Shown in pieces: positions 2,983 to 23,099 of a stretch of DNA of 64,000 nt. Location: the NCBI GenBank assembly GCA_963775465.1, contig CAVZIW010000009.1, positions 39,742 to 103,741 of the forward strand, given 5' to 3'. Every line of letters begins with the position of its first letter. The stretch's first letter is position 1. Under the pieces are notes generated by a model, which was not told the DNA's origin, made no database searches, and worked only from the letters and a program-made list of their open reading frames with translations. A program made the translations under genes and the position numbers. The stretch is from Candidatus Bathyarchaeota archaeon. GTDB taxonomy: Archaea; Thermoproteota; Bathyarchaeia; Bathyarchaeales; Bathycorpusculaceae.

Positions 2983-3707
2983 TGTCAGCAAGAGGATACT
3001 TGGAAACACAAAAACAAAAGTCAAAGTAGAGTTCTTATTTAACCCTAATGAACTCACTATAGAAAAGTCAAACCAGTTTGCTGAAATCAGCATACCAGGA
3101 CTTCCTTCATCAACTTTTCAGTTTGTAAAAGGGGGTTCAAGGACCTTGAATTTAGATCTTTTTTTTGACACCTATGAAAAGCGAACTCTCCGACAGACTG
3201 GAGAGAAGGGAAGCATCAAAAATGAGGGGGGCAACGTTATTGAGGCAGGAACAGACGTTAGAGTATTCACAGATCAAATCACGGGCTGGGATACAGGACC
3301 AGTGAATAAAACTAAGTCTGATCCCAGGACTTATGGATATAAATGCTGCACTTCATGCTCCACCTATTTGCAATTTTGTGTGGGGATCTTTCCGATTTCC
3401 ATGCTTCGTGGAGAAAGTAACAAAAAAATTTACGTTGTTTCTGCCAACAGGAGTGCCAGTACGTGCAACTCTCAACATATCTCTGCGAGAATATATAGAA
3501 TTAAAAGATCAGCTCGCAGAAACACCCTCTCGAATCTTTGACAAGACAAAAGTTTGGAAAGTTAAGCAAGGCGACACACTCTGGCTCATCGCAGAGAAGG
3601 AGTATGGCGACCCAGCTCTCTGGAGACCCATAGCTTCATCCAACAAAATTTCTAATCCACGTGAACTAAAACCCGGCATAGAACTTATTATTCCTTCACT
3701 GGAGTAA
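2982..3707 (+). CDS. eCIS tube initiator with C-terminal LysM (Afp7/Pvc7-like), frameshifted
   Basis: FLFNPNELTIEKSNQFAEISIPGL...LDLFFDTYE...PPICNFVWG...F..TGVPVRA...VKQGDTLWLIAEKEYGDPALWRPIASSN. Confidence 0.9.
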
Positions 3708-3711
3708 AAAT

Positions 3712-4790
3712 ATGACTTTCATCAATAGTGTAAAGACATACGGCAACTTTTATGTTCCTAGATACCAGATCCTAATTGGAAAGAAAGACGTTTTGAAGGA
3801 TCTTAAAATGGAAGTCTTAAATTTAAGTTTTGAGGAGGCGATAGATGAATTTCAACGCTTTTCATTTTCAGTTAATTTTCCACGTTCAAAATGGGTTGAT
3901 GAAAAACTCTTTGAGCCAGGTGAAGTTGTTGAGGTAAAAATGGGTTATGCGAACAATACTAAACTCATGATGGTTGGAGAAATGGTTGCCGTTGAGCTGC
4001 AACTTTCCCGAAAGCGGTACTCCACAACTCGAGATTGGCGGGTATGATCTTTCATATCAGTTAACGCGAATAAATATGCATAACACTTGGCATGATACAA
4101 GAGCAAGCACAGTGGTTAAAAAGCTGTTGTGTGATCCTCTGCTAAGAAATAAATTTGAAGTCAATTCCAACATTACCGAGACGGATATTGTACGAACGAT
4201 TGTTCAAAATGGTCAGACACACTATCAATTCATAAAGGAATTGGCAAAGCAAAATGCTTTTCAGCGTTTACGTTAAAGAGGATAAACTATTTTTTGGTCC
4301 AGCCGAAAAAGCCAAAGAAATCTTTGAGCTGGAATATGGTAAGTCTCTATTGAGTTTCACTCCAGAAATTAACACCGCAAATCAGGTAGGCAGCGTTACT
4401 GTAATTGGATATGAACCTAAGAAAAAGAAAGCCGTTGTGGGAAAAGCTGAAAGAAAGCCAGACAAGCCGGGAAAAAATGGAGTTTGGATGGAGAAAATTG
4501 TTGGAAATGTTCGGGTTAAAGTAACAAATAGATCGGCTACAAATAAACAACAGGCATCTATGCTCGCGAAATCGATCCTCGAAGAGTCTTCTGCTGGACT
4601 TCTAAAAGGAAGCGCGAAAAGCATAGGAATCCCCGATATAAGAGTTGGAACTAAAATAAGACTAAGTGGACTCGGGGATACCTTTAGTAGAAAATATTTT
4701 ATAGAAAAAACAAAGCATAGTATTGACACGTCGGGATACAGTACCGACTTCAGTGTTAGGAGGGATTTTAGTGTCAATGTTTCCAGTTGA
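3712..4790 (+). CDS. Baseplate hub / phage late control D-like protein (N-terminal half of Afp8/VgrG), frameshifted
   Basis: Three consecutive fragments: EVKMGY...FPESGTPQLEIGGYD, LEYGKSLLSF, GIPDIRVG..I.LSGLG..FS.KYFIEK..HSI...GY.T.F. Confidence 0.85.
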
Positions 4791-5392
4791 AGAAAAAAGT
4801 GGGATAATTCATGGGGTCGTTATTGGCATTGTTACTAACAACAACGATCCTGAGGGGATGGGCAGAGTCAAGGTCAATTTTCCTTGGCGGGATATTAAGG
4901 ATGAAAGTTTTTGGGGCTAGAATTGCAACTTTCATAAGAGTGGAAATGAAAGAGGCTCATATTTCTTGCCAGAGGTTGGAGACGAAGTATTAGTTTCGTT
5001 TGAGCAGGGAGTGTCCATTAAGACCTTATGTCTTAGGTGCACTCTGGAACGGCAAAGACAAGCCCCCCGAAACAAACACTGATGGAAAAAATTGATTGAG
5101 TCTATTAATAAAATCAAGAAGTGGACACAAAATTGTATTTGACGATAGTGAGAGTAAAGAAAAAGTTGAAATTCTCACAAACTCTGGGCATCAAATAGTT
5201 CTTAACGACTCCTCAGGAGGAGAAAAGATGGAAATCAAAGACAAAACTGGAGCTAACCTCATAGTTATTGATTCAATTCAGAATACTTTGCAAATAAAGA
5301 GCCAAATGAAAATAAGCATTGAATCACAAATTATAGAAATAAAAGCTGGAGCCACTCTGAACCTTCAGGGAGGGCTTATTAAGATAAATTGA
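4777..5392 (+). CDS. Spike protein (gp5 OB-fold / baseplate assembly V), frameshifted
   Basis: GVVIGIVTNNNDPEGMGRVKVNFPW, FLPEVGDEVLVSFEQG, IKSRSGHKIVFDD, GGLIKIN*. Confidence 0.9.
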
Positions 5393-5403
5393 GAGGGAAT
5401 ATT

Positions 5404-5695
5404 GTGCCACCTGCAGCCAGAGTCGGGGATACCACAAGTCACGGTTCACCATTGGGTCCGGGTCCAGGAAGCCCAAATGTCCTAATTGGGGGAATGCCTG
5501 CTTGGCGTGCAACATGTGATTTTCATGTCTTGCCCTTTGGCGGATGTTAAAGGTCCCCACGTTGGCGGAATAGTAGCAATAGGCAGCACAACTGTTCTGA
5601 TCAACAATCTTCCTGCTGTTCGAATGGGCGACATAATAACTGAGAGTACTCCTAACACCATCCTAACTGGGTGTTTCAAAGTAATAATTGGTTGA
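5404..5695 (+). CDS. PAAR spike-tip protein, one frameshift
   Basis: MPPAARVGDTTSHG...VLIGGMPAWR...CP...PHVGG...GSTTVLINNLPAVRMGD...GCFKVIIG. Confidence 0.9.
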
Positions 5696-5704
5696 GGTTG
5701 AAAA

Positions 5705-6098
5705 ATGTCGAAAAAATTTTTGGGAACAGGCTGGAAATTCCCAGTACAAGTGGATAAAAAATACGGGAAAATAGCCTTATCAAAATATGAAGATGACATA
5801 AGAGAGGCTATATGGATAATCTTGGGCACTGCCAAAGGTGAAAGAGTGATGCGCCCGAGTTTTGGTTGCGGAATCCATGAAATGGTTTTTCACACTTTAA
5901 ATATGGAAAATTTGAGTGTGATAGAAGAACAGTGCAGAAGCTGTGACACTTTATGAACCGAGAATAGAGATTGTCAGGATTAAAATAAACCTTGATCAAG
6001 CTCAAGCTGGAAAACTCTTAATCGATATTGATTATAAAGTCAGATCGACAAATAATCAGTTTAACTTCGTTTATCCTTTCTATCTAAATGAGGGTTAA
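5705..6098 (+). CDS. gp25/GPW baseplate wedge protein (Afp9), frameshifted
   Basis: FLGTGWKFP...IREAIWIILGTAKGERVMRPSFGCGI; continues YEPRI...FNFVYPFYLNEG*. Confidence 0.92.
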
Positions 6099-6102
6099 AA
6101 TA

Positions 6103-9100
6103 ATGTTGGCTCCCAAACTTTATAATAGAGATCTCAAAGCAATTCTGAAAGATCTCGTAACTCTATACAACAAGTTTGTGCCAGAATTAAAGCAGGAGGA
6201 TCTGGATGCTGGCAGCGCCCTTCTGCGTATTTTCGCTCATATCGCAAATAAAACATTAATTCGACTTAACAATGTACCTGATAAAGCGTTTTTTGAGTTT
6301 CTTGATTTGCTTTGGACGGAGCTTCATCCGCCCAGACACTTCCCGTGTTCCAATTAAATTTTATTTAACTGCTGAAACGGTGAAATTATTCTTCTCATCC
6401 CTGAGAGAACACAAATTGGAACATTGCCCACAGCGGCTCATCCCCCTATCATTTTTGAAACAGAAAAGAATTTGACCGTAACTTCTTCTCAGCTCAAAAG
6501 AGTAATCTCGATCGATCCTTTTCAGAATGCAATATTTGATCACACTTCAGAGCTTGAAAAAGGAGTAACAGAATTGTTTGTAGCTTCACAACATCCTCAA
6601 CATATTCTATTCTTAGGCCATAAATTCTGTTCAATCTGAAGAAGAAAAGGGAAGTCGACAACGTAAAGATACTTCTGAAAGATCTGCCTAGTGACAAAAA
6701 TCTTACCTCAGACAAGATTGTTCGGAGATACTGGGGATTTGATTCTTCAACAAGAGAGAGCGGGTGGCTACCCCTTGAGAGGTGTCTTAATGAATCGGGA
6801 AGTTCTGAAGTGATAGTTTTGTGACTGCCCTGCTCGCTCCGAGTCTAAGCCAATAAGTATTGATCCATCTGTGAATGACGTGGGCTATTCGGATGTTTTG
6901 AAGGAAGTCAATAACCTTGGGATTGAAGGGGATGTTTTTTGGATTCGCGCCACAGCGGCAGGCTTTGATCTAAAACAAAAAACCTTGCCGACGGTGGAGT
7001 CAATTCAAGCAGCTGCAGTGGCTTGTATTTTCCCTGATTTGGCTTTTTACAATGATGTCCCCTTGGGTGTTGACGGATCTTTTTATCCTTTCGGTACCAC
7101 TCCAATGGTCTACGATAAATTCTATATTGGAAGTCAAACGGCATTTTCAAAAAAGAAATCATTGGTTCACATCAATTTTGATTTAGCTCCGTTGGAGCGC
7201 CTAACTGACAACCCAACGGTTCCTCAGTTATCTTGGGAGTACTGGAATGGAAAAGGTTGGACCAGACTTTGAAACATTTGCTTACGGTCTCAAAGCAAAT
7301 AGGGGAGAGTTGAGGTTTGAAAGTTCTGGAAGTGTTTCATTTGCATGTCCTGTGGATCTTGAAAAAACTGAGGTTAACGGCAAAGAAAACTATTGGATAC
7401 GAGTGCGACTCATCGGTGGAAATTACGGTACCGCTTCTTATACTCCTAATGGAAAAATGTCTGTAAATTCAATTAAAGCCCCAAAGATTTTAAAAATAAG
7501 TATCAACGTTAACATTGACCAAGACCACTTCTACCCTTTGGAATATTGCATTACTAAGAACAATCTCAACACTTTAAGTGTTGACCTATCAAAACCTTTT
7601 CAACCTTTTCAAGTTTTAGATTCACAAGAATCAATTATTTGTCCGGATTTGACAAGCCCTTCTCCAATGGCCGAATTAGTCTTTTCTTCTCTTTGACGAA
7701 GCAAGAATACATTGAAAATTCAAAGCCTTATTTTGCATAGAGCTACTGTGGAAATCGAAACGGCGACAATTGTTGCATCGCATTGCAATTACTTGATAGT
7801 ACTGAAAACTTGACTGAAAGCGGTGCGATAGAGTTTGTGGGACCAGCAAATATGCTTAAGAGCAGAAAGTTTAGTCAAGAACTTTATTGGATAAAAGCTG
7901 AAGTTATGAATGAGAACAGGTTTCAACCTTTCGATAAAACTCTTGTTGAATATGTAAAAAAATACTCTGAAAATAGGTTTGAAACGAACGCTCATATAAA
8001 GAAACTTAATGATTTTCTCTTGGAACGAGGCTTAAAAAGTTTTGATGCAAGAAAATCTCTCTCGTACAATTTGAATCAAATGAAGAAAGCCAGCAGGAAT
8101 CTATGAGTTTATTTCCATCAATTTCAACATTGACTTACTTTCATCCAAAACTTTCAATCCCACATGAAATGAAAAATACTGCAGCTCCTAAAGTCCAATC
8201 TATACATACTAATACTACTTGGGCTATTCAAACATCGTCGCTTTTAGATGAAGTCTTAGGCTTGAGCACACATTCCCGAATGAGCAGTTCTTTTTCAGTC
8301 AATCCCCCGTTCTGTCAGAAACAATCTGGGTTCGAGAACAATACGTGAATGATGAACAAACTCTTTCCGAGAATGATAGTTCCATCGTAAAAATAAACAA
8401 AAAAGAACAGTGGGTAAAGTGGATGAATGTTTCTAATCTCTTGGATTCTCATGAAAGTAGTAGGCACTATATGGTGGACAGGATCGGGGAAAGATACAGT
8501 TTGGCGATGGAGTAAATGGCAAGATCCACCAACTAAAAGTGAAATAAAAGCTAGGGATCAGACAGGGGGAGGGTTGATTGGTAATGTGAAAGCTGGAGAA
8601 GTGAAAAATCTTCGATCTTCAATAGCTATGATTGAACGTGTTGAAAATATTGATTCTGCTCAAGGCGGACCTCATGGCGAAGGCGAATTGTGTTATTTAG
8701 AGAAGGGTCCAAAGATGCTTCAGCATAGATTTCGAGCAGTTGCCAGCGAAGATTATGAATGGTTAGCTAAGGAAGCTTCGCCGCAGTTGCACGTGCAAAA
8801 TGCATTCCCAATGCCAATGAGACGGGAGAATTTTCTCCTGGTTCCGTTGTGGTTGTTGTTGTTCCCAAGAATAATGAAGAAATGCCTGTTGCTTCTCCTG
8901 AGTTAATGAAGAGTTAAAGACTATCTGAAAAATCATTGTCCTGCTTCAACATCAACAGTAACAATAACCTCTGCAGCTTACTACCAAATTTCTGTCCAGC
9001 TGACGTTTTTGTTACCTCTTCTAGTTTGGCTTCTGAAGTTAAATTCAACACAATTAGACGCCTTCAAGAGTTCTTACATCCGATTAGAGGGGGAATTGAG

Positions 9101-9322
9101 GGTAAAGGATGGCAAATTGGGAAAATGCCTGGGAAATCTGATATAATGGCATTTTTCCAGAGCATTCTCAACGTGGATCACGTAGAAGGCTTGTCTGTGA
9201 CACTAATTGAAAATACTACGGGAAAGTCACTTGAATTGGAAGATGCTCTTCAATTGCCAGAGTACTTTTTGATATGCAGCGGAAATCACACAATAAATGT
9301 CAAGTTGGAAAAGGAGATGTAA
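6103..9322 (+). CDS. Large baseplate J-like protein (Afp11), many frameshifts
   Basis: DAGSALLRIF...RLNNVPDKAFFEFL, FYPFG..P, LSWEYWNG.GW, YWIRVRL, RFRAVASEDYEWLA, FLHPIRGG..GKGW, LICSGNH. Confidence 0.85.
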
Positions 9323-9325
9323 ATA

Positions 9326-10100
9326 TTGACGATAAAGACCAGCCATCCTGATAGAAGTTGGGGCTTGACTGTTCCAAAACTTGACGACGTTACTTTTGCT
9401 GGATTAGTTGAGGATGCTAAAAAGTCGATACCTCAGTTCCACCCGAATGGACTGCTTACAAATTGCATGATCCAGGAATTACGATTATTGAACTTTTGGC
9501 ATGCATAGTTGAAACGGAGAATTTTGAACTAGATCAAGTAACTGAAAAATACGGCGAGAAGCTTTCTTCGTCTTTTAGGTCAGGAGCCTCAAAAAGGTGA
9601 AAAGCTGAAAGTAGCAAAGTTGAGGGCTCAGATGGATTTGAGAAAGCTTTTATAGGGCTGTAACCTTGGAAGACTTTGAGCGTTTAGCTGTTGAAACCTC
9701 AAGTGTCGATATTGCTCGTGCTAAGGCTTTTTGGAGTGAGGATATAGTACAAATTGTTGTTTTGCCTGAGTCATTGAGAACTAAAAAAAAAGCAACAAGA
9801 GGCGATGTCCGATTTTGAGGTGAAAAGAAGAGTCTGCCGTCATTTGGATAAGCGCCGTATTTTGACAACTCTCATCGAAGTGACTTACCCGGAATACATT
9901 GAAGTGTCTGTTCAAAATGGGGTGAAGATAAAGCATAACGCTTGGAAAAATGGAGTTGAGCAAAGAGCAAAAGAAACTTTGCAGAGATCTCTTCGAATCC
10001 ATTTCGATGGCCTTTTGGAAGAAATGTTTATGCTTCTGAGGTAATCGCAACAATTGAAAACGTTGATGGTGTAGAATTAAAGCTTTAAGATTTGGAGTTA
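9326..10100 (+). CDS. Second short baseplate J-like protein, frameshifted
   Basis: PKLDDVTFAGLVEDAKKSIP...HDPGIT..ELL; RAVTLEDFERLA; HLDKRRILTT.IEV..PEY. Confidence 0.75.
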
Positions 10101-10109
10101 AAAACTGAT

Positions 10110-11185
10110 TCAGAATGGACTGAGGAAGTATTTGTTACTAGGAAAGAATGCTTTAACAAAGTATGATCCCTCAAAAGATACATGGAGTTTTAAAGCATGA
10201 CAGAAAGAAAAAAAATTAGGATACCAAATGATTGGCAAGAAACGGAAATAGGGGCTCAAATTGCACAGAGAATTGATAGCCAAATTCCTATGTGCTCGTG
10301 GCATAGGCTCCTGATTGTTGCTAAAGTCCCAAAGGAGCTGCAAACAAGTTATATTATTACCGATGACCTCACAAAGGCTACCCGACAACATGAGTGGGTT
10401 GTTCTTGAAAAAAATCAGATGGAAGCCAATCTCTTCGAACCAGGGGAAGGTATCTTTTACTAAAGTTTGCGACTGCATCTAAAGGCAAGCATGAACTTCA
10501 GACAATAAAGTATGTAAGAGTCTATTTGCTCGAGAAGAAATATTGAATATCTGCCCGCCGTTTATCAAAATGAGTCCTATGATGAAGATTTTATTAAAAG
10601 GTACCTTTCAATATTTGAAGAATTTAATCAGAAAATAGAACATCGAATACAATCAATATCAGCAATTTTTAGTGCTCATCAGACTCCAAGTGATTTTCTT
10701 CCTTGGTTATCGACTTGGGTGGGTTCGATAAAGGATGGAATTGGCCTAAGATAAATGGAGAATTTTTCTTAGCAGAGCCGCTGTTCTCTATCGACGAAGA
10801 GGAACTAAAGCGAACTGGAAAGATTTTGAAAATATATACTGAAAGACGTCCGTTTGCTATTGTTGAACGTGCTCTACTGAAGCATGGAAGCGAAGATTTG
10901 AAAAAGACGTTGGATGTTTTGTTTGGAGGCAAATATTCATTCTGCGTTTTGCTCAGGACTGAGCAATTGAAATCCGAAAAAGATCAAAGAGTGATAACTC
11001 GGATAATTATGACAGAGAAGCCAGCACATACTGAAGGTGGCTTCTCGTTGGTGGAAGATCGCATAAACCTGGATTGGAATACGTACCTTGGAATCAATAC
11101 ATATCTGGTAAAGCCTGCAACAGGGATGTACGTTGGCAAAGCTCACATATCAATTGATACAGTACTTGGTCTTAAAGCAGGCTAA
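10110..11185 (+). CDS. Phage tail protein (P2 gpI-like baseplate wedge), frameshifted; start uncertain
   Basis: EYLPAVYQ...FIKRYLSIFE...TPSDFLPWLSTW...F.VLL...II..EKPAHT...YLGINT. Confidence 0.75.
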
Positions 11186-11248
11186 GCTTTGATTCACATA
11201 AATCTTAAATAAATTTAGAGGCAATATAGTTGATCTTGAGGATTTGGA

Positions 11249-12882
11249 ATGGCAGATAATACAAGTAAGGTAGAAGATATTACATGTGAAACGTTTCCTC
11301 CTTTCCAACGTAATAATTATTTTTATGGCAAATTATTGTCTGTCAAAGATTTTAAGATGGAACAGCAGTATTTCATCAACAAGAATCGATTATCGAATTT
11401 GTTTATTCATGGTTCTGGAGTGGTTTGTGGTCTTCATGTATCAAAAAGTAGTAGTCACGAATTAAAAATATCCAGAAGCCTGGTGTTGCTCTTGATTCAT
11501 GTGGGCGTGAAATTATTGTTTCTGAAGAGCATATTGTGGATTTAAACAAAGAACTTCCAAATCCGGTGAGTCCAGCTAAGATTTATTTGAAGTGCGAAAT
11601 CGAAGGCAGAGATCTTACAACGAAAGTTTTGAAATCCTCCACCTATGCTGATGAGAGTTGCTTCAGTACTATAGAGGAAAAATTTAGAGTTGAGGTTGAG
11701 TCTGCACTCACTCAAACTTCTGGATACGCAGAACGTTTGGAGCGTGAAGAGGAGCTCTAGACGTTAACGAAAAAACTTTTGAGGATTCCTCAATTGACGA
11801 TGTGTCTTTACTTCTGACTCAACCTGAAGTTTCAACTGAGAATCTTAGTTTTGCTCCATCTCGCAAGAAGGAACTGTTCTATGTAAAGGGCTGTCCATCT
11901 TCTAACGAAAAGAGAGTTTTGTTAGGCCATGTTTTTTTCAGTGTCGACAAAAAAGGATTGGTAAACATAGAACATGTATCCAGCAATAGACCAATTGTTT
12001 ACAGCAATGATACTCTTTTCAGATTGATAAAGTATCTTGAGCGAGAGATTAACCCTGTTGAAGCAGGGCTTCCAGCTGTTCAAGGTGTAGGTTCGGAAAC
12101 AGGATCTGACTTTTAGCTCAACTGAAGAATGGGTTGATAATCTTAACAAGGGTTTCAAAATTACGTTCAATAGACCAATGAAGAAAAAGACAAAAAACAG
12201 AGATACTTTGAGTTTGTTTCTGGAAATAACGAAAATTGACCTAGGAACTGTTGAAGCAGTGACTCAAAGTGTTCCCTTTGTCCGCATTGAGATTCGGAGG
12301 GTCGCCATTCCAATAGACTTTCGAGCTAACGATGGACGAATCGTAGAATTTGCTATTAACCAGTCTTCACTGGAACCGATGGATTACTTCTTGATTGGAG
12401 GACTTGACAAGCTACTTGTTGGCAACATTGATAGCCCCTTAACTAGTATTAGGGGTTTTAAACTCAGGTTGATTGTGCAGGTAAATGGCGATTTTGTGTG
12501 CAGTGATGAAGAAGAAAGCAAATGTTTGGATGGCAACTTTCTCAGAGCTAATTTTCCTACAGGAAACGGGGTTGAAGGTGGCACATTTGAAAGCTGGTTT
12601 AGCTTAAAAGCTCTGCCTAAGCCACCTACCATCGAGGTGTTCAGATCGGTAATCGCGAATATTATAACTGATCCTCAACTTGTGCAAAATCTGATCAAGA
12701 AAATTAAGCCAAGAGGATCACCTACTGTAGGGGACTTGGCAAAATCGAGTTCAAAAGATCTATCGAGGAAACTTAACGTTTCAGATAGCAATACGATAAG
12801 GTCGATCAGTGAAGTTATTATCAAAGCGAAAGAGTTTGAGGCTAATTACACCAACATTAAAGAAGTAATTTCAAAATACTAA
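11249..12882 (+). CDS. eCIS tail-fibre/baseplate-associated protein (Afp12/13-like), frameshifted
   Basis: RNNYFYGKLLSVKDFKMEQQY...GSGVVCGL.V N-terminus; GDF...LDGNFL...PTGNGVEGGTFESWF motif. Confidence 0.7.
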
Positions 12883-12980
12883 GTATTAAGTCAAATCACC
12901 TCTTCATAAGTACTTAAGATTCAAATCGAAAAGGATCATTGGAATTCATGGAAGGATTAGAATTCGAGATTTGATGAAAT

Positions 12981-15076
12981 ATGACGGCTCACTCAGAGAG
13001 TTCTTCAGGAAACAACAAAAGAACAGACTACTATAGAACTAATATTGAGCATATCTTGGACGAACTCTCAAGAATCGACTTACTTGTAAATCACCACATA
13101 AGAAACTGGCGGAAAAATAGTAAGAATATTGATTTTCCGGGATTGTACATTTCTGAAGAAGAAGTAGACGCAATCCTAAGCAAGAAAAAACCGGTTCTCC
13201 CAGAATTGCCCGAAGTCGAAGAGGCAAAACGAAAAATTGCTGAAAAGAAAAAAGCCTCTCTCCAGAGAGGCATCCCTTTGAGGCTGGAGATGCTCAGAGA
13301 ATTAATTGATCTTAACGAGTTTGAAATTGAAGCAGTGTTGATTGTTTTAGCTTGGAAATAACTTAAAGTATTCGAAACTCTTTGCATACCTTCAAGATGA
13401 TGTTACCAAGAAAAACCGACAGTTGGATTAATCCTAAAACTTCTTTGCCATTCCAGAGAGGAAGCTATTGCTACTAGAAGATTTTTTGAATATAATTCAC
13501 AACTTATAAAGAATTTGATTTTTCAACAAGAAAAAGGCTGTCCACTTCTTGAAAAAAGCCTAATGATTGACGAGCGCATAGTAGAATTTTTACTGGGTGA
13601 CGACACACTGGATTCAAATATTGTGTCATTTGCTTCACTTAGCAAACCTGAAACAAGTTTTGATGAATTAATGTTACCTAATGAACTAAGACAACAACTT
13701 GCAAAAATTTGTGATTCAAGCTTCAATTCTGAATTTTTGTTATTGATGCAGAACTCTGCTTTGGACTCAGAGGTTTGTCAAGCTTTCTGTAGTAGAGCAG
13801 AAATTGCCCTTCTAACGGGACATTTAAAGTGGATAAAACCGGAAACTTTGGAAATCAGTATTCGAAGATTCTTCAGAGAAGCAAGATTACATTCTGCAGC
13901 AGTCTGCCTAGATGGTTTGGATGATATTCCAGAAGATGCAAAGCCGCCTATTCTGAAACAAATTGAACAGTTCGAAGGCAGACTTTTCGTTCACAGCGAA
14001 TCAAATCTCTCTTTAAAAAAAGAAGCTATTCAGTTAGCAATTCCGGCATCAACATTCATGAGTAGAAAGAAGATGTGGCAATCTCTCATAGGAAATTCCA
14101 AAGATGCTACTGAACTTGCGACAAAATTCCGATTTGGAAAAAGCAAGGCAATTGCGGCAATAAATTGTGCTAAAATTTAGCTAGAGCAAGAAACCCTAAG
14201 AACCCTAAGACAACACTTGAAGATTTTTATGATGGTTGCAAAGCACAGACTATAGGTATTTCATCAGCGGCTAAAATAATTCCGAGATACGGTTGGTCGG
14301 ATATAGTTTTGCCCGATGACAAAAAAGAGCTACTTCGAGAAATCTGTAACTATGTAAAACACTATGCTACAGTTTATGAGACTTGGGGGTTTGACAAGCA
14401 CAATCGTGGAAAAGGATTAAATGTCTTGTTTTCCGGTCCATCTGGAACTGGCAAAACAATGGCTGCTGAAATTCTTTCGGGTGAACTATACCTTGATCTA
14501 TATAAGATTGATTTGTCAATGGTTGTCAGCAAATATATAGGAGAGACAGAGAAGAATCTGAACAGAATCTTTAAGGACGCCGAAGAAAGTAATGTGGTTT
14601 TGTTTTTTGACGAGGCAGATGCAATGTTTGGAAAACGTAGTGAAGTAAAAGATGCTCACGACAGATACGCTAACATAGAAATCAACTATTTACTCCAGAA
14701 AATGGAGGAGCATGAAGGTATTGTTATTTTGGCAACTAATATGCAAAAGAACATTGATGAAGCCTTCCTGAGAAGAATGAACTTTATCGTAGAGTTTCCA
14801 TTCCCTTCAGAAGAATATAGGTTGGCAATATGGAAGAGAGTCTTCCCAGCGCAGATGCCTCTAGATAAGAAAATCGACTACGAATTCCTCTCTAAGCTAC
14901 AAATCAGCGGAGGTAGTATAAAGAACATTGGGCTAACTGCAGCGTTTCTGGCTGCCGAGTCTTCTAGCATAGTAAAGATGCTATACATAGTTAAGGCTGC
15001 ACGCAGAGAATTCGAGAAAATTGGCAAAGTCTATGGGAAGGAAGAATTCGGTAAATATCTCAATTTGATTAAGTAA
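12981..15076 (+). CDS. eCIS AAA+ ATPase (Afp15/Pvc15), frameshifted
   Basis: GLYISEEEVD N-terminus, AYLQDDVTKKKPTVGL; Walker A GPSGTGKT, VVSKYIGETEKNL, Walker B LFFDEAD, DAHDRYANIEINYLLQ. Confidence 0.95.
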
Positions 15077-15749: not shown

Positions 15750-18700
15750 TTAAATCGTGTTTGGGGCTACATCTTTTTCTAACAATTCATTATAGAATTT
15801 TCGTGTCGAGTGTTTAAATGAGAGACCCATAAGCACTCGAGTAACAAATTCCGGTATCCCAGCCTCATTCATTGCTGCCATGTTTCTTTCAATGTTTTCA
15901 TTAGAATTCATTTTTGCAACCTCGGTTCTATTAAATAAATTCTTGCTTGTTTGACGGCGACCAATCTCACTGTGATCTTTTTGTGTTACCGCAACAGCGG
16001 GATTTTGTTTTGAAGCCTCTCTCTCAAGTCTACCACCGAATCCTTTAACATCTAGCCACAAGTTTTGCAGTAATTCGTGACCAGCGAGCTTATCTCCTGG
16101 TCGGTTGGCGAAAGATCCATAGGTATCCATTCCATATTCTCCAAGATCACTCTTGCCAGTAATTAATTGGCCAGTTCCACTGGAGATTACATCTTTTGCC
16201 AATTTTACACTACCTTTGACGTTTGTTACCTTTCTTCTTGGACTCATTTGCCCCTCGATTACCCAAGGCTGCTGTCTTGTATTAAGTGTTAGAGCAGCAA
16301 AACCATACTTTGACTGCCAATTTGGTAAAACGCTCTCTAATTCCTTTTCAGACATGGGTCTTTGTTTCTCAAAGGTCTCTATTTCTAATTCGATCGCAGC
16401 TACGCCTGCATCCCACTTCTCTTGAGAGCTTAACATTTCACCTTTCTTAGTCTTAACTAAGTCCTGGATTGCCCCATTTGGTTCCTTGTCTTTTCTCCTA
16501 CTTTTTTTTGCTTCTTCCTTAAGCTGTTTTAGGTTTTTTCCTTCAGTTGTTCTTGAGTTGGAGTCTACCTCTGTTTTGGGTTTTTTAGCTCCGCCTGGTT
16601 GGACCTTTGAGCGGGCTGGCGGTAACTCTGGTGCTTTCCCAACTTTGACGTCTCCTTTTTCCTTGGTTTTGGCAGGAGGTTCTCCATCTTTAGTGTTCTT
16701 TTCGGTCCATTTCCCTTGTTGTTCGCTTTTTCCTGAACCTTTGTCGCTTTTGTTGCTATAAAGGTCTGTTAAGAATTTGTCTGCTGAAAAGTTAATTTGC
16801 TTAAACTCTATTGCAGGTATCTGACCTGAACCGATTACATAGTCTATTGAGGCCTTTATTCCGAAATCGCTACCTATTGGCCATTTCCTTTCTATTAAAG
16901 GCCAAGTCCACTTTTTGTCGGGGCAGAGGCTCCACATGGGGGCATCTACCTCTACGAAGAGGTCTCCGCTCAATCCTAAGAAGGGTTGGGCCGCGATCTC
17001 CATTTCACCTCTTATGAAAAATTCGCCTTTTTTGTCCTCGCCTTTGCCTGTTGGTTTTTCGCGGTATCCGATTATTGGCGTGGCTTCCGCGTATCCTTGG
17101 ATTTCTGCTGTTGCGTTGATGCCTCCACCCGCTTTTATGTCGTGGGAAAGGATTTCGAGGCCAGCGCCCGCTTCTCCTCTCAGCTGCAATCCTGCTGCCG
17201 CAGATATGTTTAGGCTTCCTTGGACGCTGAAGTCTTTGGATTTCTTTGGATCCGTGGAGTATGTGCCTTTGACTAGAATATTTTGGAACTTGGCTGGCCC
17301 CAATTTTGCGAATGCGTCCATTCCTACGTTGGCGAAAATAAAGATATTTCCAACTACTGGGATGCCGTAGGGAGCTCTTGCTTCGAGTGTAAACAGTCTT
17401 TTATTGTAGTCTTTTTGCGGGAAGAGTTCAAATTCTTTTTGAGGTGTAATTTCTCCAATTATGGTGGTGTATCCTTCGGAATCTATTATTACGTGGGCAG
17501 TCCCACTTAGCCAATCTGTAAATGCAAAATTCAAGTCCCCTTCTCCAAAGACGGCGTAGCCACCTTTTTTGGGTTTAGGACTGGATTTCTTAGTAGCTGG
17601 TTCAGCTATTTTTTCCTCTCCGGCTGGAGCTTTTCTTGTTTCTTCAAGTTCCTTTGCTTTGCTTTCTTCCATAACTCTTAGCGTTATGGCTCCTGATAGC
17701 TTGTCGCCTGAATATCCAACTTTTCCTCCTCCAGTTATGTTTTGGCCGTCCCAATCTACAGTTATGTTTCCTGTGATATTCTTGGGTAGCTCCAAATCAG
17801 CTTTTGCGCTTCCAGAAACAAACCCTTGTTCAGAACGTTTTAGCTCCATATTAACTGATGAAATGTTTTTAATTTTGCCTTTAACTATTCCTTCAAAATT
17901 GGCAACCTTTTCATCGTTCGCCTGTATGTTTATTGAACCGGAAAATGCGTTGTTTCCAACGTTGATCGGCACCTCTAAGCCTAGATTTAGATTTCCATCT
18001 TCGAGTCTATTTGAGATATTGATTCTTGAATCGACATTGAAACCCGTTAGGCCTATTAAGTAAGTATTTTTCCTAAAGAAATTGACTAGTGATGAGCCTC
18101 TCCCAGATACAGTTCTTCCGACACCCATTTCTCCGGCAATTCATTATTCTCCACTTCAATAAACAGGCTAGGTCTAATTTCTTCTCATCCCACTCACGTT
18201 CATAAGAAGTGGATGGGAAGTCATCAGTATCGCTTGTTTCTTAGCTTGGTACTTGTTCTTAGTTTTATTGAGTCTAATTGTGCCTTCAGCGATGTTTCCA
18301 AAGCGTACGTTAACTAACCCTGTTTTGTTTTTGTCTAACCATGCCTCTGTGGCTTCTGGTGGCTTTAGAGATGCGTTCCCTTTGAGTTGTATGATGCCTG
18401 GCGCTACTTCGGTTTCTTCATTTTTGGGTTTGGGTGCTTCTTTGGATGATTTAACATTTGTGTTTTTAGGTTGACGTTGAATCAACTCATCTTCCACGTG
18501 CAGTAGGTTTGGAGCGGAATTGGTCGTATTGGATTTGATGTTGGTTTTTGCTGATCCTTGTTGTATTACATGTGTTAGTTCGTGAGCGAGGAGATGTTTT
18601 CCTGCAGAGGTTCCTGTCTCGTATTTTCCAGATCCAAAGAATATGTCTTTGCCACGGGTGAAGGCTTGAGCGTCTAGTTCATTTGCGGCATTTGTAGAAT

Positions 18701-19262
18701 CATTGTCTGAGTGAATTTTCACTTGACTAAGGTCATGTCCCAGTCGATTTTCAAAGTATGTGCGATCTGATTCATGTAGTGAGTACCCGCCGCTTTCTGC
18801 CAGAGATTTTATCCTTTTCTCCAGTTCTGGCGAAGCAGTTGATGTTGAAATAGACTTATCTTTGGCTTGAACGTGTTCTTCTTCCTCTTCTTTTTTTGAA
18901 GAGGTTTTTTTCAAGTTCAGTACCTGAAGAGAGACAGTACCATTATGAGTCATATTGAATGACCTTAAACCATGAGAGGAGTTGACTTCATGGTTAAGCA
19001 CTATTTGATCTGCGGTTTGATTTGCTTCTTGTTCGTATTTGTCTTTAGGTTGATTGATTTTGAATTTAGCTTGTATGAAGTCGGAGGTTATGAGTTTTTG
19101 TACGGCTCTGTTGCCAATTGAGTTTTGCAGTTTCAAAACATGATTAACTCCTGGAAAATTAGATACATGAGTCTCCGTTTCTTTCGATTTAGTTGAAGCG
19201 GCCTGTTTTTCGGTCAGCTCGACTGCTTTTGTTTTTGCAGTAGCAAAACTCATGTGTACCAT
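15750..19262 (-). CDS. DUF4157 (eCIS core) protein with C-terminal putative HNH/Tox-SHH-like nuclease domain; probably one gene split near 18130-18180
   Basis: FENRLGHDLSQVKIHSD...AQAFTRGKDIFF...HLLAHELTHVIQQ; Gly-rich beta-strand stalk; C-terminus LAGHELLQ...NPAVAV...DH. Confidence 0.8.
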
Positions 19263-19522
19263 ATACTTAGCTTAAACGATATAAGCCTTCTCAATATTTT
19301 TTAGTCTTGATTTAGAATGCTCAGTTTCTTGGACCGGAATGAAAAAATATTCAAATAATCCGAATCATAATAAATTTTCAGTTCAGTTCAGTTCGATTTC
19401 ATAATCTAGAAAAGCGTCTATTGTACTACAATTCTCTTCTTCAAGAACAGGTTGAATTTCCGTCCTAATGGAATTCGTCATTTAAGAAATTAGACTCTCG
19501 ATTATTTCACAAAGCATGTTTG

Positions 19523-21760
19523 CTAAGGCGGTGGGCTACCTGTTTTCATGAAGGTTTCAAACCATTGGTATAGAGTGGGCCAATTTGTTCTGAGCCAGGT
19601 TGGGTCTAAATTGTAAAGTGCAAAAGCCTCGGGGAACAGTTCATTTGGCGGATTTGTTGCTGCATACCATGTTAGTGGCTTAATATTGCTCTTTTTTACA
19701 AAAGCATCAAATGCACTTTTTACTCCTGGTTTCCAACCTACAAAATGACCTAGTTCATGACCGAAAGTTAGCGAAGTATAAGAAAAAATTGCTGGACCTT
19801 CTGTACCTTTTCCTCCTAGAAAAATAGCGACTTCGTTTGCTGTTGCTGCGTTGAAAATAATTATTGATTGGTCATTTCCGTTAAATAGACTTAATCCCGT
19901 ACGGTTTGGGTCTTGCTTAAACCCTCGTCCAGCTGGCTCGATCGATATTTCTTGCCGTATCATGTGGATTCCCTTAAACGTAGTTAACATATTATCGGAT
20001 AATGTCTCTATCGTGGATTCTAAAGCAATCAATTCCGAAGTTTCAAAATTCTTCGTGTTTACTGTTCGTGCTTCTGGGAATTTATGTTTTTGTTTCAGAC
20101 GACTTTCTCCTTCCAAACTTGAAAGAATTGTGATGCCGTAGTTATTCTGGAACCATTTTGGCGAGGCAGCATTGTTTCTCAATTGTTCGTTGGCGTTTTT
20201 TCGTATTTCATCTACCGTGGTACCGCTCAGGTTAACGTTCGGGTAACGCTTGGTCAACCAAGTTTTTAGCGCTGCTTCATTCTTTGAGTTGATTCCGAAC
20301 TCCTTTGCGCGTCCAACATCTAGTTGCGACGTTTTTGTGCTCATGATTTTCTCTTTTTCTCCAACGCGTTCCACATCAATGTTATTTGTATTTGGTCTAA
20401 ATCTGAGTGTACACAGTACTTGTTTTGAGCTGTTGGCAACGGGAATAATAGCGTCTACTTCTGTGTTCCGAGTGCCAGATTGGAAATACTGCCAAATTGC
20501 ATATTTGACTGAAAGTCGTTCATCAGCTGGTAACTTAGTGATTCCGTTGATCGTTCCCAACCTATCTTGTTTCTTTGGGTTCCTTTTGGTTTGAGCTTCT
20601 TCGAGTTTCAGATCGACGAAATCTTTTTCTGCATAGTCTGAAGGTGGACCAGCATGAATAGGCAGGTTGGATCCTAAGAATGTAATTGTTAAACTTGTGA
20701 TGCTTCCTTGCGGGTCCTTGGTGCCTTTTGCGTGAAAAGATACTTCTAATTTCTCTTGTTTTTTGCCTTTTGTGAGGGCTACGCTAATAGGCACAACGTT
20801 GTCAAACGTCTGTTCAACATTAGTTTCTATCCAATTGAATAGTCTTTTGTGCTCTTCAGGATGAGCGGTCCAATATTTTTCAATGTTATTTTCGGGAAAG
20901 CCTGAATGGGAATAGCTATTAGGTTCCGTGAACGAGACACTTTTTGGTGAAGCTGCGGAGATCGGAGCTATTATTGGAGTGCCTTCTGATATCAATACTG
21001 CTTCTACAGAGTCTCTTTTTTGCAGTGGTTTTCTGGGTTTAAAAGTGAATTTACAGATTAAGTTTTTGGAAGCCTTGGCTTTCTCTCTTTTGGGAATTGA
21101 GACAATCCGTGAGATTTGACGTGTAATAGATTTTTTTGGCATCAAATGCCAAAGAACTGATAAAACTGAATCACGTTTTTCGGTATTGCGGTTAATTCGA
21201 TCATCCATAATGAGATTATGGATTGTCATAATGCGTTGCTCCCAATAGCTTAAGCTAGATGCTTCTTCGATTTTTGTTCGCTCAAAAGTCATACTTTTTG
21301 TTTCATATTGCTCCGTCCTTTGACTCTCTTTTTTTCCCGTTATTTCAGGTGTAGTTGTGCCCTTTTTCTTAGGAGGTTTTTCTTTACTATTCTTTTTCTG
21401 TCTTTGGAGTAACGGTATGCCTATTAGTGAAGTATGGTTGGCTTGAGAGATTTCATTTTTGAATAGCTTTGGCTTTGGGGGTTTAGCTATGTTTTCTGCG
21501 ATACTATCTGCTTCTTGTTCGTATATGTCTCTTGATTGGTTGATTTTCAGTTTTGCTTGAGTGTGAATAGAGCTTATGAGTTTTTGTACAGCTCTGTTGC
21601 CGATTGAATTCTGCAACTTCAAAACATAATCAATCTGCGAGCTTTCAGAAACTGGTTTTCTTGCAGTTCTTAGTCCATCAATTGAAGATTTCTGTTTCTT
21701 TGAAAGCTCGAGTACAGCTTCAGTAGTGACAAAATTCATACATGTCTTATTGTGTATCAT
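19523..21760 (-). CDS. Putative eCIS effector: shared N-terminal leader + C-terminal HExxH zinc metalloprotease (lethal-factor/ATLF-like motif pattern)
   Basis: LQNSIGNRAVQKL...AKLKINQ..D.YEQEAD leader; FGHELGH...YAATNPPNELFPEAFALY...L...P.LYQWF. Confidence 0.7.
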   Translation of the reverse strand: MIHNKTCMNFVTTEAVLELSKKQKSSIDGLRTARKPVSESSQIDYVLKLQNSIGNRAVQKLISSIHTQAKLKINQSRDIYEQEADSIAENIAKPPKPKLFKNEISQANHTSLIGIPLLQRQKKNSKEKPPKKKGTTTPEITGKKESQRTEQYETKSMTFERTKIEEASSLSYWEQRIMTIHNLIMDDRINRNTEKRDSVLSVLWHLMPKKSITRQISRIVSIPKREKAKASKNLICKFTFKPRKPLQKRDSVEAVLISEGTPIIAPISAASPKSVSFTEPNSYSHSGFPENNIEKYWTAHPEEHKRLFNWIETNVEQTFDNVVPISVALTKGKKQEKLEVSFHAKGTKDPQGSITSLTITFLGSNLPIHAGPPSDYAEKDFVDLKLEEAQTKRNPKKQDRLGTINGITKLPADERLSVKYAIWQYFQSGTRNTEVDAIIPVANSSKQVLCTLRFRPNTNNIDVERVGEKEKIMSTKTSQLDVGRAKEFGINSKNEAALKTWLTKRYPNVNLSGTTVDEIRKNANEQLRNNAASPKWFQNNYGITILSSLEGESRLKQKHKFPEARTVNTKNFETSELIALESTIETLSDNMLTTFKGIHMIRQEISIEPAGRGFKQDPNRTGLSLFNGNDQSIIIFNAATANEVAIFLGGKGTEGPAIFSYTSLTFGHELGHFVGWKPGVKSAFDAFVKKSNIKPLTWYAATNPPNELFPEAFALYNLDPTWLRTNWPTLYQWFETFMKTGSPPP

Positions 21761-21879: not shown

Positions 21880-22461
21880 ATGGGTGATTATAAAGCAATA
21901 GCTAGTGTTAGCAAAACATTGCTTAGTATACTCTTTAGCAATATTAAAGGGGACCCTCAAGTTAACTCGATTGTTAATAACGAAGATCAAATATCGCTCT
22001 CTTCCCCAAAGGACATATCTCCTGATAAGAAACTGTCTTTGTTTTTGTATAAAGTCGAAGAGTTTTCAACAATGAAAAATCAATTGCCCTCAGAAATAAA
22101 TCTCAAAATAAAAGTCCTTCCACCTTTGTACTTATCTCTGCACTATCTTGTAATACCTTTGACACAGAACATTGAGGGTGATCATTTGCTTCTGGGAAAA
22201 ACAATGCAGATATTTTCTGAGAACAGCACCTTGCGTGGATCATTTTTGCAGGGGAGCTTAGCAGATTATGATGCAAACCTCAGGTTAGTTTTGGATTCGC
22301 TTTCTCTAGATGATATAAACAAGCTGTGGAGTGCGCTAGGAACCCATTATAGACTTTCGTTAAGTTATAGTGTTTCTCCGGTAATGATTGATTTGACTCG
22401 TAAGCGAGAAGCGGCACGAGTGGTGGAAGAAAAATTTGAATACAAAAATATTCCACGTTGA
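21880..22461 (+). CDS. Pvc16/Afp16 (DUF4255) tail terminator/cap
   Basis: AIASVSKTL..IL, LSLFLYKVEE, PPLYLSLHYLV, LLLGK.MQIF, LSLDDINKLWSAL...YRLSLSY.VSPV.ID. Confidence 0.9.
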   Translation: MGDYKAIASVSKTLLSILFSNIKGDPQVNSIVNNEDQISLSSPKDISPDKKLSLFLYKVEEFSTMKNQLPSEINLKIKVLPPLYLSLHYLVIPLTQNIEGDHLLLGKTMQIFSENSTLRGSFLQGSLADYDANLRLVLDSLSLDDINKLWSALGTHYRLSLSYSVSPVMIDLTRKREAARVVEEKFEYKNIPR

Positions 22462-23074
22462 GGTTGGATCCTTGAAGAAAGCTACTGAATTGCGAATGAG
22501 GAGTCTTTCTTTCTCAATTTCTTTAGTTGATTCCTATATAGAAAACCGGCCTATAGGCTCCCTAAGTGTTTACTTGAATGAAGAGCAATATAAAGCAGTG
22601 AAAAATCCTTCCGGCTATTATGTATTTTCAGATATCCATAGAGGCATTTACACACTGCATGTTGTTTCTGAATTCTATTTTGAGGAGAGCTTGGATGTGG
22701 ATCCTCATTCTCTTGATCCTTTGTGTCCAGTTAAAGAAATTAGATTAATTCCTACACCCGCTTATCCTTTTCCAAGTGGAGCTACGTTAATACGTGGAAG
22801 GGTTTTAGATTCGAATAAAAAACCAGTATCAAGTGCCTTCGTTGAAATTAGAGAAAAACCTCAGGAGCTTAACAACCCCGAGGGGAGAGTTTATTTTATA
22901 TTTTCCATCATTGAAGAAAGATCAAGTCAAAATAGAAAGTGGAAAAAGATTTGTTAAAAACGGAAAAAGGCATCGAGATTTCTATCACATGCAATTTCCG
23001 TGGCAAGAGTGGCATGGTAAGGTTGGATGGTGTAGAAGAAGGAACTAGGAATAATATTAAATATATCCTATTAA
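22436..23074 (+). CDS. Carboxypeptidase-regulatory-like (beta-sandwich) eCIS accessory protein, frameshifted near 22870
   Basis: KNPSGYYVF...L.PTPAYPFPSGATLIRGRV...GEF; usual position between Pvc16 and sheath. Confidence 0.7.
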
Positions 23075-23099
23075 GATAAGGTAAAAGCGGTTTTGAAAA

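Follow-up and report, generated by a model that had tools for sequence, protein, structure and literature searches.

A widespread N-terminal leader of eCIS cargo proteins, most likely an address for the loading machinery, on one DUF4157 protein and one DUF4157-less protein of an archaeal locus

The use of eCIS as programmable tools for protein delivery is limited by the unsettled question of how these particles select and load cargo. In AlgoCIS, loading of Cgo1 and Cgo2 requires their N-terminal region and the AAA+ ATPase Alg15, and DUF4157 is dispensable (10.64898/2026.05.27.728243). The concept of a loading region at the N-terminus, followed by a DUF4157 domain that can be dispensed with, is thus already known, which makes the finding presented here less new than assumed. 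PVC cargo is also loaded by N-terminal signals (cited in PMC11297309). The PVC/Afp signals of Pdp1, Pnf and Afp18 (Jiang et al. 2022; PMC11297309) are hydrophilic and portable, comprise the first 20-50 residues and depend on Pvc15 for loading; the accessible text of that source reports no specific conserved sequence among them, and the accessible text of the AlgoCIS preprint describes loading sequences as not conserved between systems. In the eCIS_core polymorphic toxins the N-terminal part is constant and the C-terminal toxin varies, several paralogues occur per locus, and anthrax-lethal-factor-like metallopeptidases are a listed toxin type of this PVC-metallopeptidase system (PMC3482391; PMC8213781). 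The family is defined by its peptidase domain, and the accessible text of these two papers does not mention a leader ahead of that domain.

We analysed a stretch of 64,000 nucleotides from a Candidatus Bathyarchaeota archaeon (the window), in which two neighbouring toxin-like genes, ORF362 and ORF745, lie beside a phage-tail-like injection machine, an eCIS (Table 1). In architecture alone the window cargo resembles Cgo1 and Cgo2 (PMC8894135; 10.64898/2026.05.27.728243), with an N-terminal region, DUF4157 and a variable C-terminal domain. As in AlgoCIS, two cargo genes of one system have a common N-terminal region and different bodies, and the locus has a gene for an AAA+ ATPase. The AlgoCIS region is described as disordered, system-specific and unconserved, whereas the window leader has two predicted helices and a motif found across thousands of proteins; moreover, ORF745 naturally lacks DUF4157, unlike Cgo1 and Cgo2. 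With the PVC/Afp signals the leader has in common its place at the extreme N-terminus, its hydrophilic character, its portability ahead of unrelated payloads and one aromatic residue among the first eight, but there is no sequence likeness, and the PVC/Afp cargo lacks DUF4157 (PMC11297309). ORF362 is a member of the eCIS_core family, whereas ORF745 has the leader without the defining domain.

Table 1. Features of the window discussed in the text (positions of the whole stretch).
Feature	Position	Strand	Remarks
Remaining eCIS core (tube/LysM, Baseplate_J-like, Tail_P2_I-like)	1..12900	+	Many short ORFs, shifting frames
CIS_tube+LysM	3333-3707	+	Pfam
Pvc15-like AAA+ ATPase (WHD N-domain + AAA)	12981..15076	+	Three ORF pieces; Pfam WHD, AAA
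ORF792	15750..18128	-	No leader; probable body of a leader-DUF4157 cargo; C-terminal ~150 aa divergent
Break ORF362/ORF792	18129..18176	-	Five in-frame stop codons in 15 codons; frame same on both sides
ORF362	18174..19262	-	Leader + DUF4157/eCIS_core; probable true start ATG 19253
DUF4157/eCIS_core domain of ORF362	18552-18779	-	PF13699, residues 162-237
Leader of ORF362	18990..19253	-	Residues 4-91; A3 100 bits at residues 35-91
M2 of ORF362	19020-19073	-	
M1 of ORF362	19089-19139	-	
ORF745	19523..21760	-	Leader, no DUF4157, ~600-aa body; probable true start ATG 21739
HELGH of ORF745	19745-19759	-	Near C-terminus, in the zinc-metallopeptidase-like domain of the body, not DUF4157
Leader of ORF745	21476..21739	-	Residues 8-95 of long ORF; A3 96 bits at residues 38-95
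M2 of ORF745	21506-21559	-	QAKLKINQSRDIYEQEAD
M1 of ORF745	21575-21625	-	VLKLQNSIGNRAVQKLI
Cap (Pvc16_N)	21880-22461	+	Pfam
CarboxypepD_reg-like ORF	22436-22957	+	Pfam
Sheath	23100-24752	+	Pfam
Tube	24896-25207	+	Pfam

Residues 1-87 of ORF362 and 1-91 of ORF745 align with 46/92 identical positions (BLASTP, E 7e-19). The earlier note on this DNA had claimed a common leader of about 45 residues at 19020-19145 and 21508-21632; the leader is real and these stretches span its two motifs, M1 (LQxxIGNxAVQxLI) and M2 (QAKLxIxQPxDxYEQEAD), but its length is about 88 residues. The same note had called the leaders alike in DNA and the remainder of the proteins unrelated, and both observations were borne out, with a mean column identity of 84% across 193 columns of leader-core DNA and E > 0.5 for every BLASTP segment outside the leader. 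DUF4157 is, as had been claimed, present in one protein only: ORF362 matches PF13699 (eCIS_core, formerly DUF4157) with 98 bits at a Pfam cut-off of 22, and ORF745 does not match it. ORF362 also carries the zinc-binding signature HExxH..Q (AHELTHVIQQ) and lies beside the eCIS gene cluster, as is typical of the family, and its DUF4157 region is modelled with pLDDT > 90. The PF13699 model covers residues 162-237 only, so the leader lies outside it. Foldseek with the ORF362 model gave no match at E ≤ 0.001, the best being an HtpX domain (E 0.9).

Of the 17 codons of the M1 core, 11 are identical between the two genes and six differ synonymously, with no non-synonymous difference, and the flanks of the core differ mainly non-synonymously. 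This pattern in the M1 core shows that the likeness of the leaders is selected at the protein level. The DNA likeness begins exactly at an internal ATG (MSFATAK.. and MNFVTTE..), no likeness was found in the DNA upstream of the two start codons, and the near-identical database protein P0155 has its first residue at the same internal start. The ORF362 model has helices at residues 37-59, 61-67 and 75-96. In the models, pLDDT stays below 50 over residues 1-36 (ORF362) and 1-47 (ORF745), and the Kyte-Doolittle means of the first 35 residues are -0.70 and -0.61, respectively, so that both proteins have a predicted disordered, hydrophilic extreme N-terminus. The leader profile A3 and tblastn found just two leader copies in the genome of the window; a candidate third copy on contig C4 was rejected, as its tblastn E-values of 0.39-1.5 reflect chance and profile A3 gives two copies only.

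No Pfam family matched ORF745 at E ≤ 0.01, and a DUF4157 profile built in this study, run with filters off, found nothing in it (E 0.24). PF13699 is present in 28/33 homologues of its body, and where 28/34 rows of the alignment carry DUF4157, ORF745 contributes just 17 residues. The body was modelled with pLDDT > 90. Foldseek gave weak matches of the body to M34 peptidases (E 1.1e-3 to 1e-2, probability up to 1.0), with a TM of about 0.5 on PPEP-1/PPEP-3, and homologues of ORF745 match PF07737 with 16-24 bits, below the cut-off of 27.4. The NCBIfam search with ORF745 gave nothing or noise far below cut-off, the PDB sequence search nothing usable, and the protein atlas scores for the body (0.78-0.91) are leads only. 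ORF745 is a natural variant in which the leader is joined directly, with no DUF4157 in between, to a body that, judging from these weak fold matches, would be an anthrax-lethal-factor-like metallopeptidase.

ORF362 and ORF792 probably belong to one longer cargo gene, with ORF362 as its front, and together they probably represent the classical leader-DUF4157-body form. The metagenome locus L049 encodes a 1221-aa protein (L049:7189-10854) whose residues 270-362 align with the tail of ORF362 and whose residues 388-1017 are 55% identical to residues 9-638 of ORF792. Residues 13-1017 of the L049 protein give one tblastn segment in a single frame that crosses the break between the two ORFs. At this break, a low-depth contig of the DNA sequencing run X1, which contains a 0.07 share of the window's words, differs by small insertions, the number of added bases being divisible by three; no RNA sequencing run containing the window DNA was listed in our search of sequencing runs. 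ORF792 had no Pfam, NCBIfam or PDB sequence match, and its protein atlas score of 0.81 is a lead only.

The leader is a widespread, strongly conserved module of eCIS cargo and is not private to ORF362 and ORF745. A 60-position leader profile matched 5,659 representative protein clusters at E ≤ 1e-3 among 1.84 billion proteins, and 835 clusters at E ≤ 1e-10. The match usually lies at residues ~30-86, and in 68 complete metagenome ORFs the median start of profile A3 is residue 31; the first ~30 residues of the module are hydrophilic and disordered, with the pattern MxxxxxTAKxxE... Regular expressions placed M2 ahead of HExxH in 117/120 homologues of ORF362 and found M1 followed by M2 in 83/120. 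M2 is the most widely kept part of the leader, M2-only matches dominating in cyanobacteria and in relatives of the same genus, and in many proteins M2-like elements ([LIV]Q[AT]K / VQRQ) turn up again in the stretch that separates the leader from DUF4157. A word-indexed search with ORF745 residues 36-95 (proteins of 409-1304 aa) gave nothing at E ≤ 0.01, which is a limit of the word index, since the profile search later found the 5,659 clusters. A contig search with a two-row leader alignment returned two loci only, its patterns being too specific. Conserved N-terminal motifs on otherwise unrelated polymorphic effectors, findable by profile, are also known as the T6SS effector markers MIX and FIX, which belong to a different secretion machine and are unrelated in sequence. 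The M1/M2 motif was not found in the searchable text of the papers listed, the matches seen there being unrelated, and it may exist as a published logo in a figure or bioRxiv supplement.

The 68 metagenome loci contained 68 complete ORFs of at least 250 aa with a full leader, of which 61 had DUF4157 and seven (~10%) did not; each of the seven belongs to a tandem array and has leader+DUF4157 paralogues as neighbours. The 150 top-scoring database matches to the leader comprised 110 with DUF4157 and 40 without; 11 of these 40 were at least 300 aa long, and Pfam, applied to 21 of the 40, found PF13699 in none. The bodies behind the leader differ between proteins, and 26/66 loci are arrays of 2-7 leader genes that share the strand of the hit. 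The separation of leader and DUF4157, which the earlier note had drawn from two proteins, is thus upheld by the 17 residues of ORF745 in the DUF4157 columns, the 7/68 metagenome proteins and the 11 longer database proteins. By sequence, the leader is an independent unit that appears to recombine onto different bodies.

In 11/23 loci of at least 9 kb (10 contigs), a gene for Baseplate_J, Tail_P2_I, a WHD+AAA ATPase, cap or sheath lies at most 10 kb away, and in the loci L074, L076 and L090 the ATPase gene is directly upstream of the leader gene. Among 301 cyanobacterial genomes, 90 had leader and cap, three the leader only, 29 the cap only and 179 neither. The Pvc16_N cap gene is thus present in 90/93 leader-positive versus 29/208 leader-negative genomes, counts that are not phylogenetically independent, as the genomes are related, so that the test overstates significance. 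A leader common in genomes without eCIS had been named in the earlier note as evidence against its proposal; the cyanobacterial sample does not refute it, as just 3/93 leader-positive genomes have no cap. In the genus of the window, the cap occurs in 15/36 genomes and a profile match, mostly to M2 only, in 3/36; as most eCIS-bearing relatives have no leader, it is not a general requirement of eCIS. In the phylum of the window, the full leader was found in the window's genome alone among the 401 genomes sampled.

We consider the leader, on balance, best explained as an address for the loading machinery. The module has three parts, a predicted disordered tip of ~30 residues and two predicted helices bearing M1 and M2, usually followed by the DUF4157/eCIS_core zinc-peptidase-like domain and then by a variable toxin body, as in 'PVC-type' polymorphic toxins. 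A Pvc15-like AAA+ ATPase would recognise the leader and thread the cargo into the tube lumen. We infer this function, with the ATPase as putative reader, mainly because the N-terminal region of AlgoCIS cargo is needed for loading and DUF4157 is not. A complex prediction with the ATPase of L076 (748 aa, 5-row alignment) and residues 1-135 of the neighbouring leader protein (17-row alignment) gave 0.00, the mark being 0.32, a score that counts neither for nor against their binding. Since the published loading signals have no conserved sequence, so strongly conserved a motif may serve a purpose other than that of an address. The address could also be the first ~30 residues alone, with M1 and M2 doing something else, a length within the range of the PVC/Afp signals.

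One such purpose would be docking, in which the leader binds to a spike/tube-initiator complex or to a trans-acting DUF4157 adaptor instead of acting as an unfoldase signal. The small ORF362, if truly separate, would then tether the DUF4157-less ORF745 and ORF792 to the baseplate. We regard this as unlikely, although in Streptomyces the DUF4157 proteins do point to spike or baseplate binding (PMC11126660; 10.1101/2025.11.06.686954): a DUF4157 effector of Streptomyces davawensis co-purified with tip, spike and tube-initiator proteins (PMC11126660), and the Streptomyces genes, like those of the window, are found upstream of the structural genes and read in the opposite direction (10.1101/2025.11.06.686954). 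Docking would also suit the seven DUF4157-less metagenome proteins, each of which adjoins a leader+DUF4157 paralogue, and the pLDDT of the M2 helix, which is 82-90 in ORF362 with DUF4157 and ~69 in ORF745 without it, although the alignment depths differ. However, AlgoCIS loaded cargo lacking DUF4157 when the strain contained no further cargo with that domain (10.64898/2026.05.27.728243), the DUF4157 proteins bear the leader themselves, so that it is not merely a handle of DUF4157-less partners, and the Streptomyces effector begins with a coiled coil that is related to tape-measure proteins and differs from the leader motif.

It also seems quite unlikely that the leader or M2 is a putative pro-peptide or processing site, with the DUF4157 peptidase cutting at M2 or close to it, either in its own protein or in trans on cargo such as ORF745, so that the toxin is set free while it is delivered or afterwards, or is kept inactive in the producer. 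Autoproteolytic toxin release by the PVC-metallopeptidase was proposed by Zhang et al. 2012 (PMC3482391), and release, maturation and immunity are among the DUF4157 roles considered by Geller et al. 2021 (PMC8213781). The wide retention of M2 and the recurrence of M2-like elements ahead of DUF4157 fit such a role, but a cut N-terminal of the peptidase would not free a C-terminal toxin, and processing is compatible with the leader as an address too, the two not being strictly exclusive. A division of labour within a sequence-specific tag of a large eCIS lineage, with tip and M1 forming the address that the ATPase reads through its winged-helix N-domain and M2 as a DUF4157 binding or cutting site in cis or trans, is rather improbable in our judgement; it would explain why DUF4157-less cargo lies beside DUF4157 paralogues in 7/7 cases. 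Recent local duplication or gene conversion, with no function of the leader itself, is highly improbable. Each window leader matches the other best (58% over 60 residues versus 36-57% to 12 others), both have the private variant KLQNSIGNRAVQKLI, and their DNA is similar. Nevertheless, the occurrence of the module in thousands of unrelated proteins and the synonymous-only differences of the M1 core contradict duplication as the sole explanation, and the likeness starts at the start codon, the upstream DNA being unlike.

The results suggest that in a large class of eCIS cargo the N-terminal region is strongly conserved in sequence, fixed in position and exchangeable between toxin bodies, and outlasts the loss of DUF4157. 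If the motif is the address or a part of it, cargo could be catalogued with a plain profile search, DUF4157-less proteins included; the tip, M1 and M2 would be the targets for mutational dissection, and natural DUF4157-less variants such as ORF745 would test what DUF4157 contributes. If tip and M1 are the address and M2 a DUF4157 site, DUF4157 would gain a concrete job and orphan cargo would be findable by a simple profile.

The eCIS genes of the window look broken, possibly through assembly errors. Intact ATPases gave two tblastn segments in different frames on the local ATPase gene, plus an in-frame stop, and from 6208 to 10055 the alignment of Baseplate_J homologues is spread over three frames. 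As the ATPase and baseplate genes are interrupted in the assembly, the local system may not work. An alternative genetic code was ruled out, as the breaks use TAA, TAG and TGA as well as frame changes. In a scan for sigma-70 promoters and terminators the counts were near the shuffled expectation, and the patterns may not suit this organism. The cap-to-tube block (21880..25207) runs divergent from the cargo genes, and the gene order ATPase-cargo-cap-sheath is also found in the metagenome locus L074.

The two cargo ORFs of the window, ORF362 and ORF745, lie between the ATPase gene and the cap-sheath-tube block (see table). Protein alignment gave 46 identities over 92 positions for their N-termini (E 7e-19) and no alignable segment elsewhere. 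This bears out the earlier note, which had described two effectors with the same N-terminal leader, otherwise unrelated, one carrying DUF4157 and the other lacking it: PF13699 (eCIS_core, formerly DUF4157) covers residues 162-237 of ORF362, while a Pfam scan of ORF745 returned zero matches. The similarity claimed at the DNA level was also recovered (84% over 193 columns). The proposed length of about 45 residues, on the other hand, has to be revised. In both ORFs an internal ATG marks the exact point from which the DNA is similar; upstream of it the two sequences are unlike, and P0155, a near-identical database protein, starts at the same internal Met, so the leader comprises about 88 residues. 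Across the 17 codons of the core of M1, the first of its two helix motifs (M1 and M2), the ORFs differ by six synonymous and no non-synonymous changes, indicating that selection acts on the peptide; in the flanks of this core the changes mostly alter the amino acid. These are the only two leader copies in the window's genome.

Features of the window discussed in the text
Feature	Position	Strand	Remarks
Tube/LysM, Baseplate_J-like, Tail_P2_I-like and ATPase block	1-15076	plus	ladder of short ORFs in shifting frames
Pvc15-like ATPase gene, interrupted	12981-15076	plus	Pfam
ORF792	15750-18128	minus	leaderless, 3' of ORF362
ORF362/ORF792 break	18129-18176	minus	five in-frame stops within 15 codons
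ORF362	18174-19262	minus	cargo ORF, leader and PF13699
ORF745	19523-21760	minus	cargo ORF, leader, no Pfam family
Cap-sheath-tube block	21880-25207	plus	divergent from the cargo ORFs
Tube ORF	24896-25207	plus	GTG start; match to the 134-position gp19 model confined to positions 35-134
TPR and CHAT fragments	25984-27357	minus	right after the tube gene
Ig-like/invasin-domain ORFs	27922-31095	minus	ladder
LPG_synthase_TM-family gene	31469-32593	plus	paralogue of the next, 12 kb apart
LPG_synthase_TM-family gene	44988-46097	plus	paralogue of the preceding

Alignments of ORF362 with its homologues span leader and DUF4157, and almost all homologues show the same pattern: a hydrophilic start (MxExxxxxxKxPxxK), then M1 (ILxLQRTIGNQAVQRLI) and M2 (LQAKLRIGQPGDxYEQEADRVA). 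Of 120 homologues searched with regular expressions, 117 have M2 before HExxH and 83 have M1 followed by M2. The two window leaders were made into a 60-position profile. In a search of 1.84 billion representative proteins that used no word index, it matched 5,659 of them at E <= 1e-3, with 835 reaching E <= 1e-10, mostly at residues ~30-86, a stretch for which there is no model in Pfam-A or NCBIfam. The leader is conserved under selection at a fixed N-terminal position. In the AlphaFold model of ORF362 (62-row alignment), its tip, residues 1-36, is disordered (pLDDT below 50), M1 forms helices 37-59 and 61-67 (block means of pLDDT 72-77) and M2 a helix at 75-96 (pLDDT 82-90), followed by a disordered linker and a confident DUF4157 domain. 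DUF4157 proteins of the same-genus genomes G023 and G029 (loci L002, L003/L007 and L006/L015) keep M2 as KIQxKLxINQPGDxYEQEAD and have a Cys-rich CP..HACP stretch at the M1 position; this suggests that M1 can be exchanged whereas M2 is retained. Among the database proteins P0154, P0156, P0159 and P0265 are cases with at least two leader copies or with M2 units repeated in tandem, and many of these proteins show a conserved MRMPEP downstream of M2 and an E-rich acidic spacer in which [LIV]Q[AT]K or VQRQ elements recur.

The separation of leader from DUF4157, proposed on the two window proteins, extends well beyond them. DUF4157 is present in 110 of the best 150 leader-profile matches (10 known from the earlier ORF362 homologue search, 100 called by a purpose-built profile that agreed with Pfam on 33 of 33 control proteins). 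The remaining 40 comprise 29 proteins under 300 aa, which may be fragments, and 11 of 303-942 aa; none of the 21 examined with Pfam contained PF13699, and their bodies differ from each other. When metagenomes were scanned with a leader alignment of 14 rows, 336 stretches were confirmed and 68 loci kept. These loci hold 123 leader ORFs, a few of them counted twice because L054 and L061 share part of one contig. Among the 68 complete full-leader ORFs of at least 250 aa, 61 carry DUF4157 and seven do not (Pfam-checked), and all seven stand in tandem arrays with leader-DUF4157 paralogues. The leader is thus swapped between unrelated bodies and occurs in arrays of differently armed paralogues. The arrays of L027, L029, L045, L054/L061 and L062, with four to seven consecutive same-strand leader genes, each with a different body, resemble polymorphic-toxin cassettes.

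ORF745 itself belongs to a leader-DUF4157-body family, of which it is a natural variant without DUF4157, since 28 of the 33 homologues of its residues 130-745 have PF13699 between N-terminus and body, and ORF745 has only 17 residues where 28 of 34 alignment rows hold DUF4157. Its body (150-745) is predicted with pLDDT > 90 and in Foldseek weakly resembles M34 peptidases such as anthrax lethal factor and PPEP-1/3 (E ~1e-3, probability up to 1.0). This predicted likeness fits the sub-threshold PF07737 matches of ORF745 homologues; it also fits Zhang et al. 2012 (PMC3482391), who name a 'Tox-ALF metallopeptidase' class among the PVC-type toxins. Several cargo proteins, including ORF745 homologues and a 562-aa protein of L006/L015 (G029), have two HExxH peptidase-like domains, DUF4157 in front and another at the C-terminus. 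P0155 is a frame-shifted copy of ORF745 from another data set.

The leader shows tight linkage with both eCIS and the ATPase gene. In 23 metagenome loci of at least 9 kb, with Pfam run on 91 of 160 flanking ORFs, 11 loci (ten contigs) had Baseplate_J, Tail_P2_I, a WHD+AAA ATPase, Pvc16_N or sheath within 10 kb. In L074, L076 and L090 an ATPase gene ends directly before the leader gene, and L074 shares with the window the order ATPase, cargo, cap, sheath. Two leader-type loci unrelated to each other have a CxxCxxCC-domain gene just before the cargo array (L043:5579-6289 and L062:2792-3502), and DUF6519 genes are present in L049 and L062. The earlier note had reasoned that a leader common in genomes without eCIS would speak against a loading signal. 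This was not the case in a sample of 301 genomes of a cyanobacterial class, where the profile, matched mostly by its M2 half, hit 93 genomes (up to 14 matches per genome) and the cap, Pvc16_N, was found in 119: leader and cap co-occurred in 90, with leader only in 3, cap only in 29 and neither in 179 (odds ratio 185, the significance being overstated because the genomes are related). eCIS, in turn, can do without this leader. The cap occurs in 15 of 36 other genomes of the window's genus and the leader profile in 3 of the 36, as M2 only or weakly. Since the leader is so rare in the genus and the full leader was found only in the window's genome in a 401-genome sample of its phylum, the window's cargo set looks imported.

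Most likely, the leader is an address for cargo loading: the AAA+ ATPase would read it and then load the cargo into the eCIS tube. For this function we draw by analogy on experiments of others. For AlgoCIS, loading of Cgo1 and Cgo2 is reported to depend on the part of the protein that precedes DUF4157, on the Alg15 ATPase and on its hydrolysis, while DUF4157 is dispensable (10.64898/2026.05.27.728243), and cargo of PVC and Afp is described as using N-terminal signals (PMC11297309). Streptomyces work (PMC11126660; 10.1101/2025.11.06.686954) suggests instead a docking element for spike or baseplate proteins, or for a DUF4157 adaptor in trans, and the leader could also be a pro-peptide, or the site at which the DUF4157 'releasing peptidase' processes the protein. 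Both are live alternatives, partly compatible with each other and with the reading of an address.

That an N-terminal loading region is separable from DUF4157 is already known (2026 preprint 10.64898/2026.05.27.728243), and DUF4157 has served as an eCIS marker since 2012 (Zhang et al., PMC3482391) and 2021 (Geller et al., PMC8213781). The preprint and PMC11297309 describe loading signals as having no conserved sequence. A sharply conserved two-motif leader in thousands of proteins was not found in the literature searched, and the matches listed for the motif letters were only unrelated papers; as figures and supplements were outside the search, a logo of the motif may have been published. Natural DUF4157-less leader proteins such as ORF745 add a useful variant to the known architecture.

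The local eCIS genes look partly broken. The ATPase gene has one in-frame stop and one frame change, Baseplate_J-like pieces are spread over three frames, and the stops in the 1-15076 block are of all three kinds; the genes at 31-64 kb are intact. The block is a decaying island, or else the assembly is poor at this place; as for the split cargo gene described below, strain variation or an assembly error may be at work in these core genes. The front of the tube ORF may lie in another frame, and the minus-strand fragments at 25984-31095 look like further interrupted large genes. ORF362, too, is probably an incomplete gene. The 1221-aa leader-DUF4157 protein of L049 aligns with its tail and then with residues 9-638 of ORF792 at 55% identity, and one single-frame tblastn segment of this protein spans both ORFs. 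Over the cargo genes, four contigs of a soil sequencing run (X1) show no difference from the window. The split may reflect strain variation or an assembly error, since a further, low-depth X1 contig across the break differs from the window by small insertions, summing to a multiple of three bases, and three substitutions.
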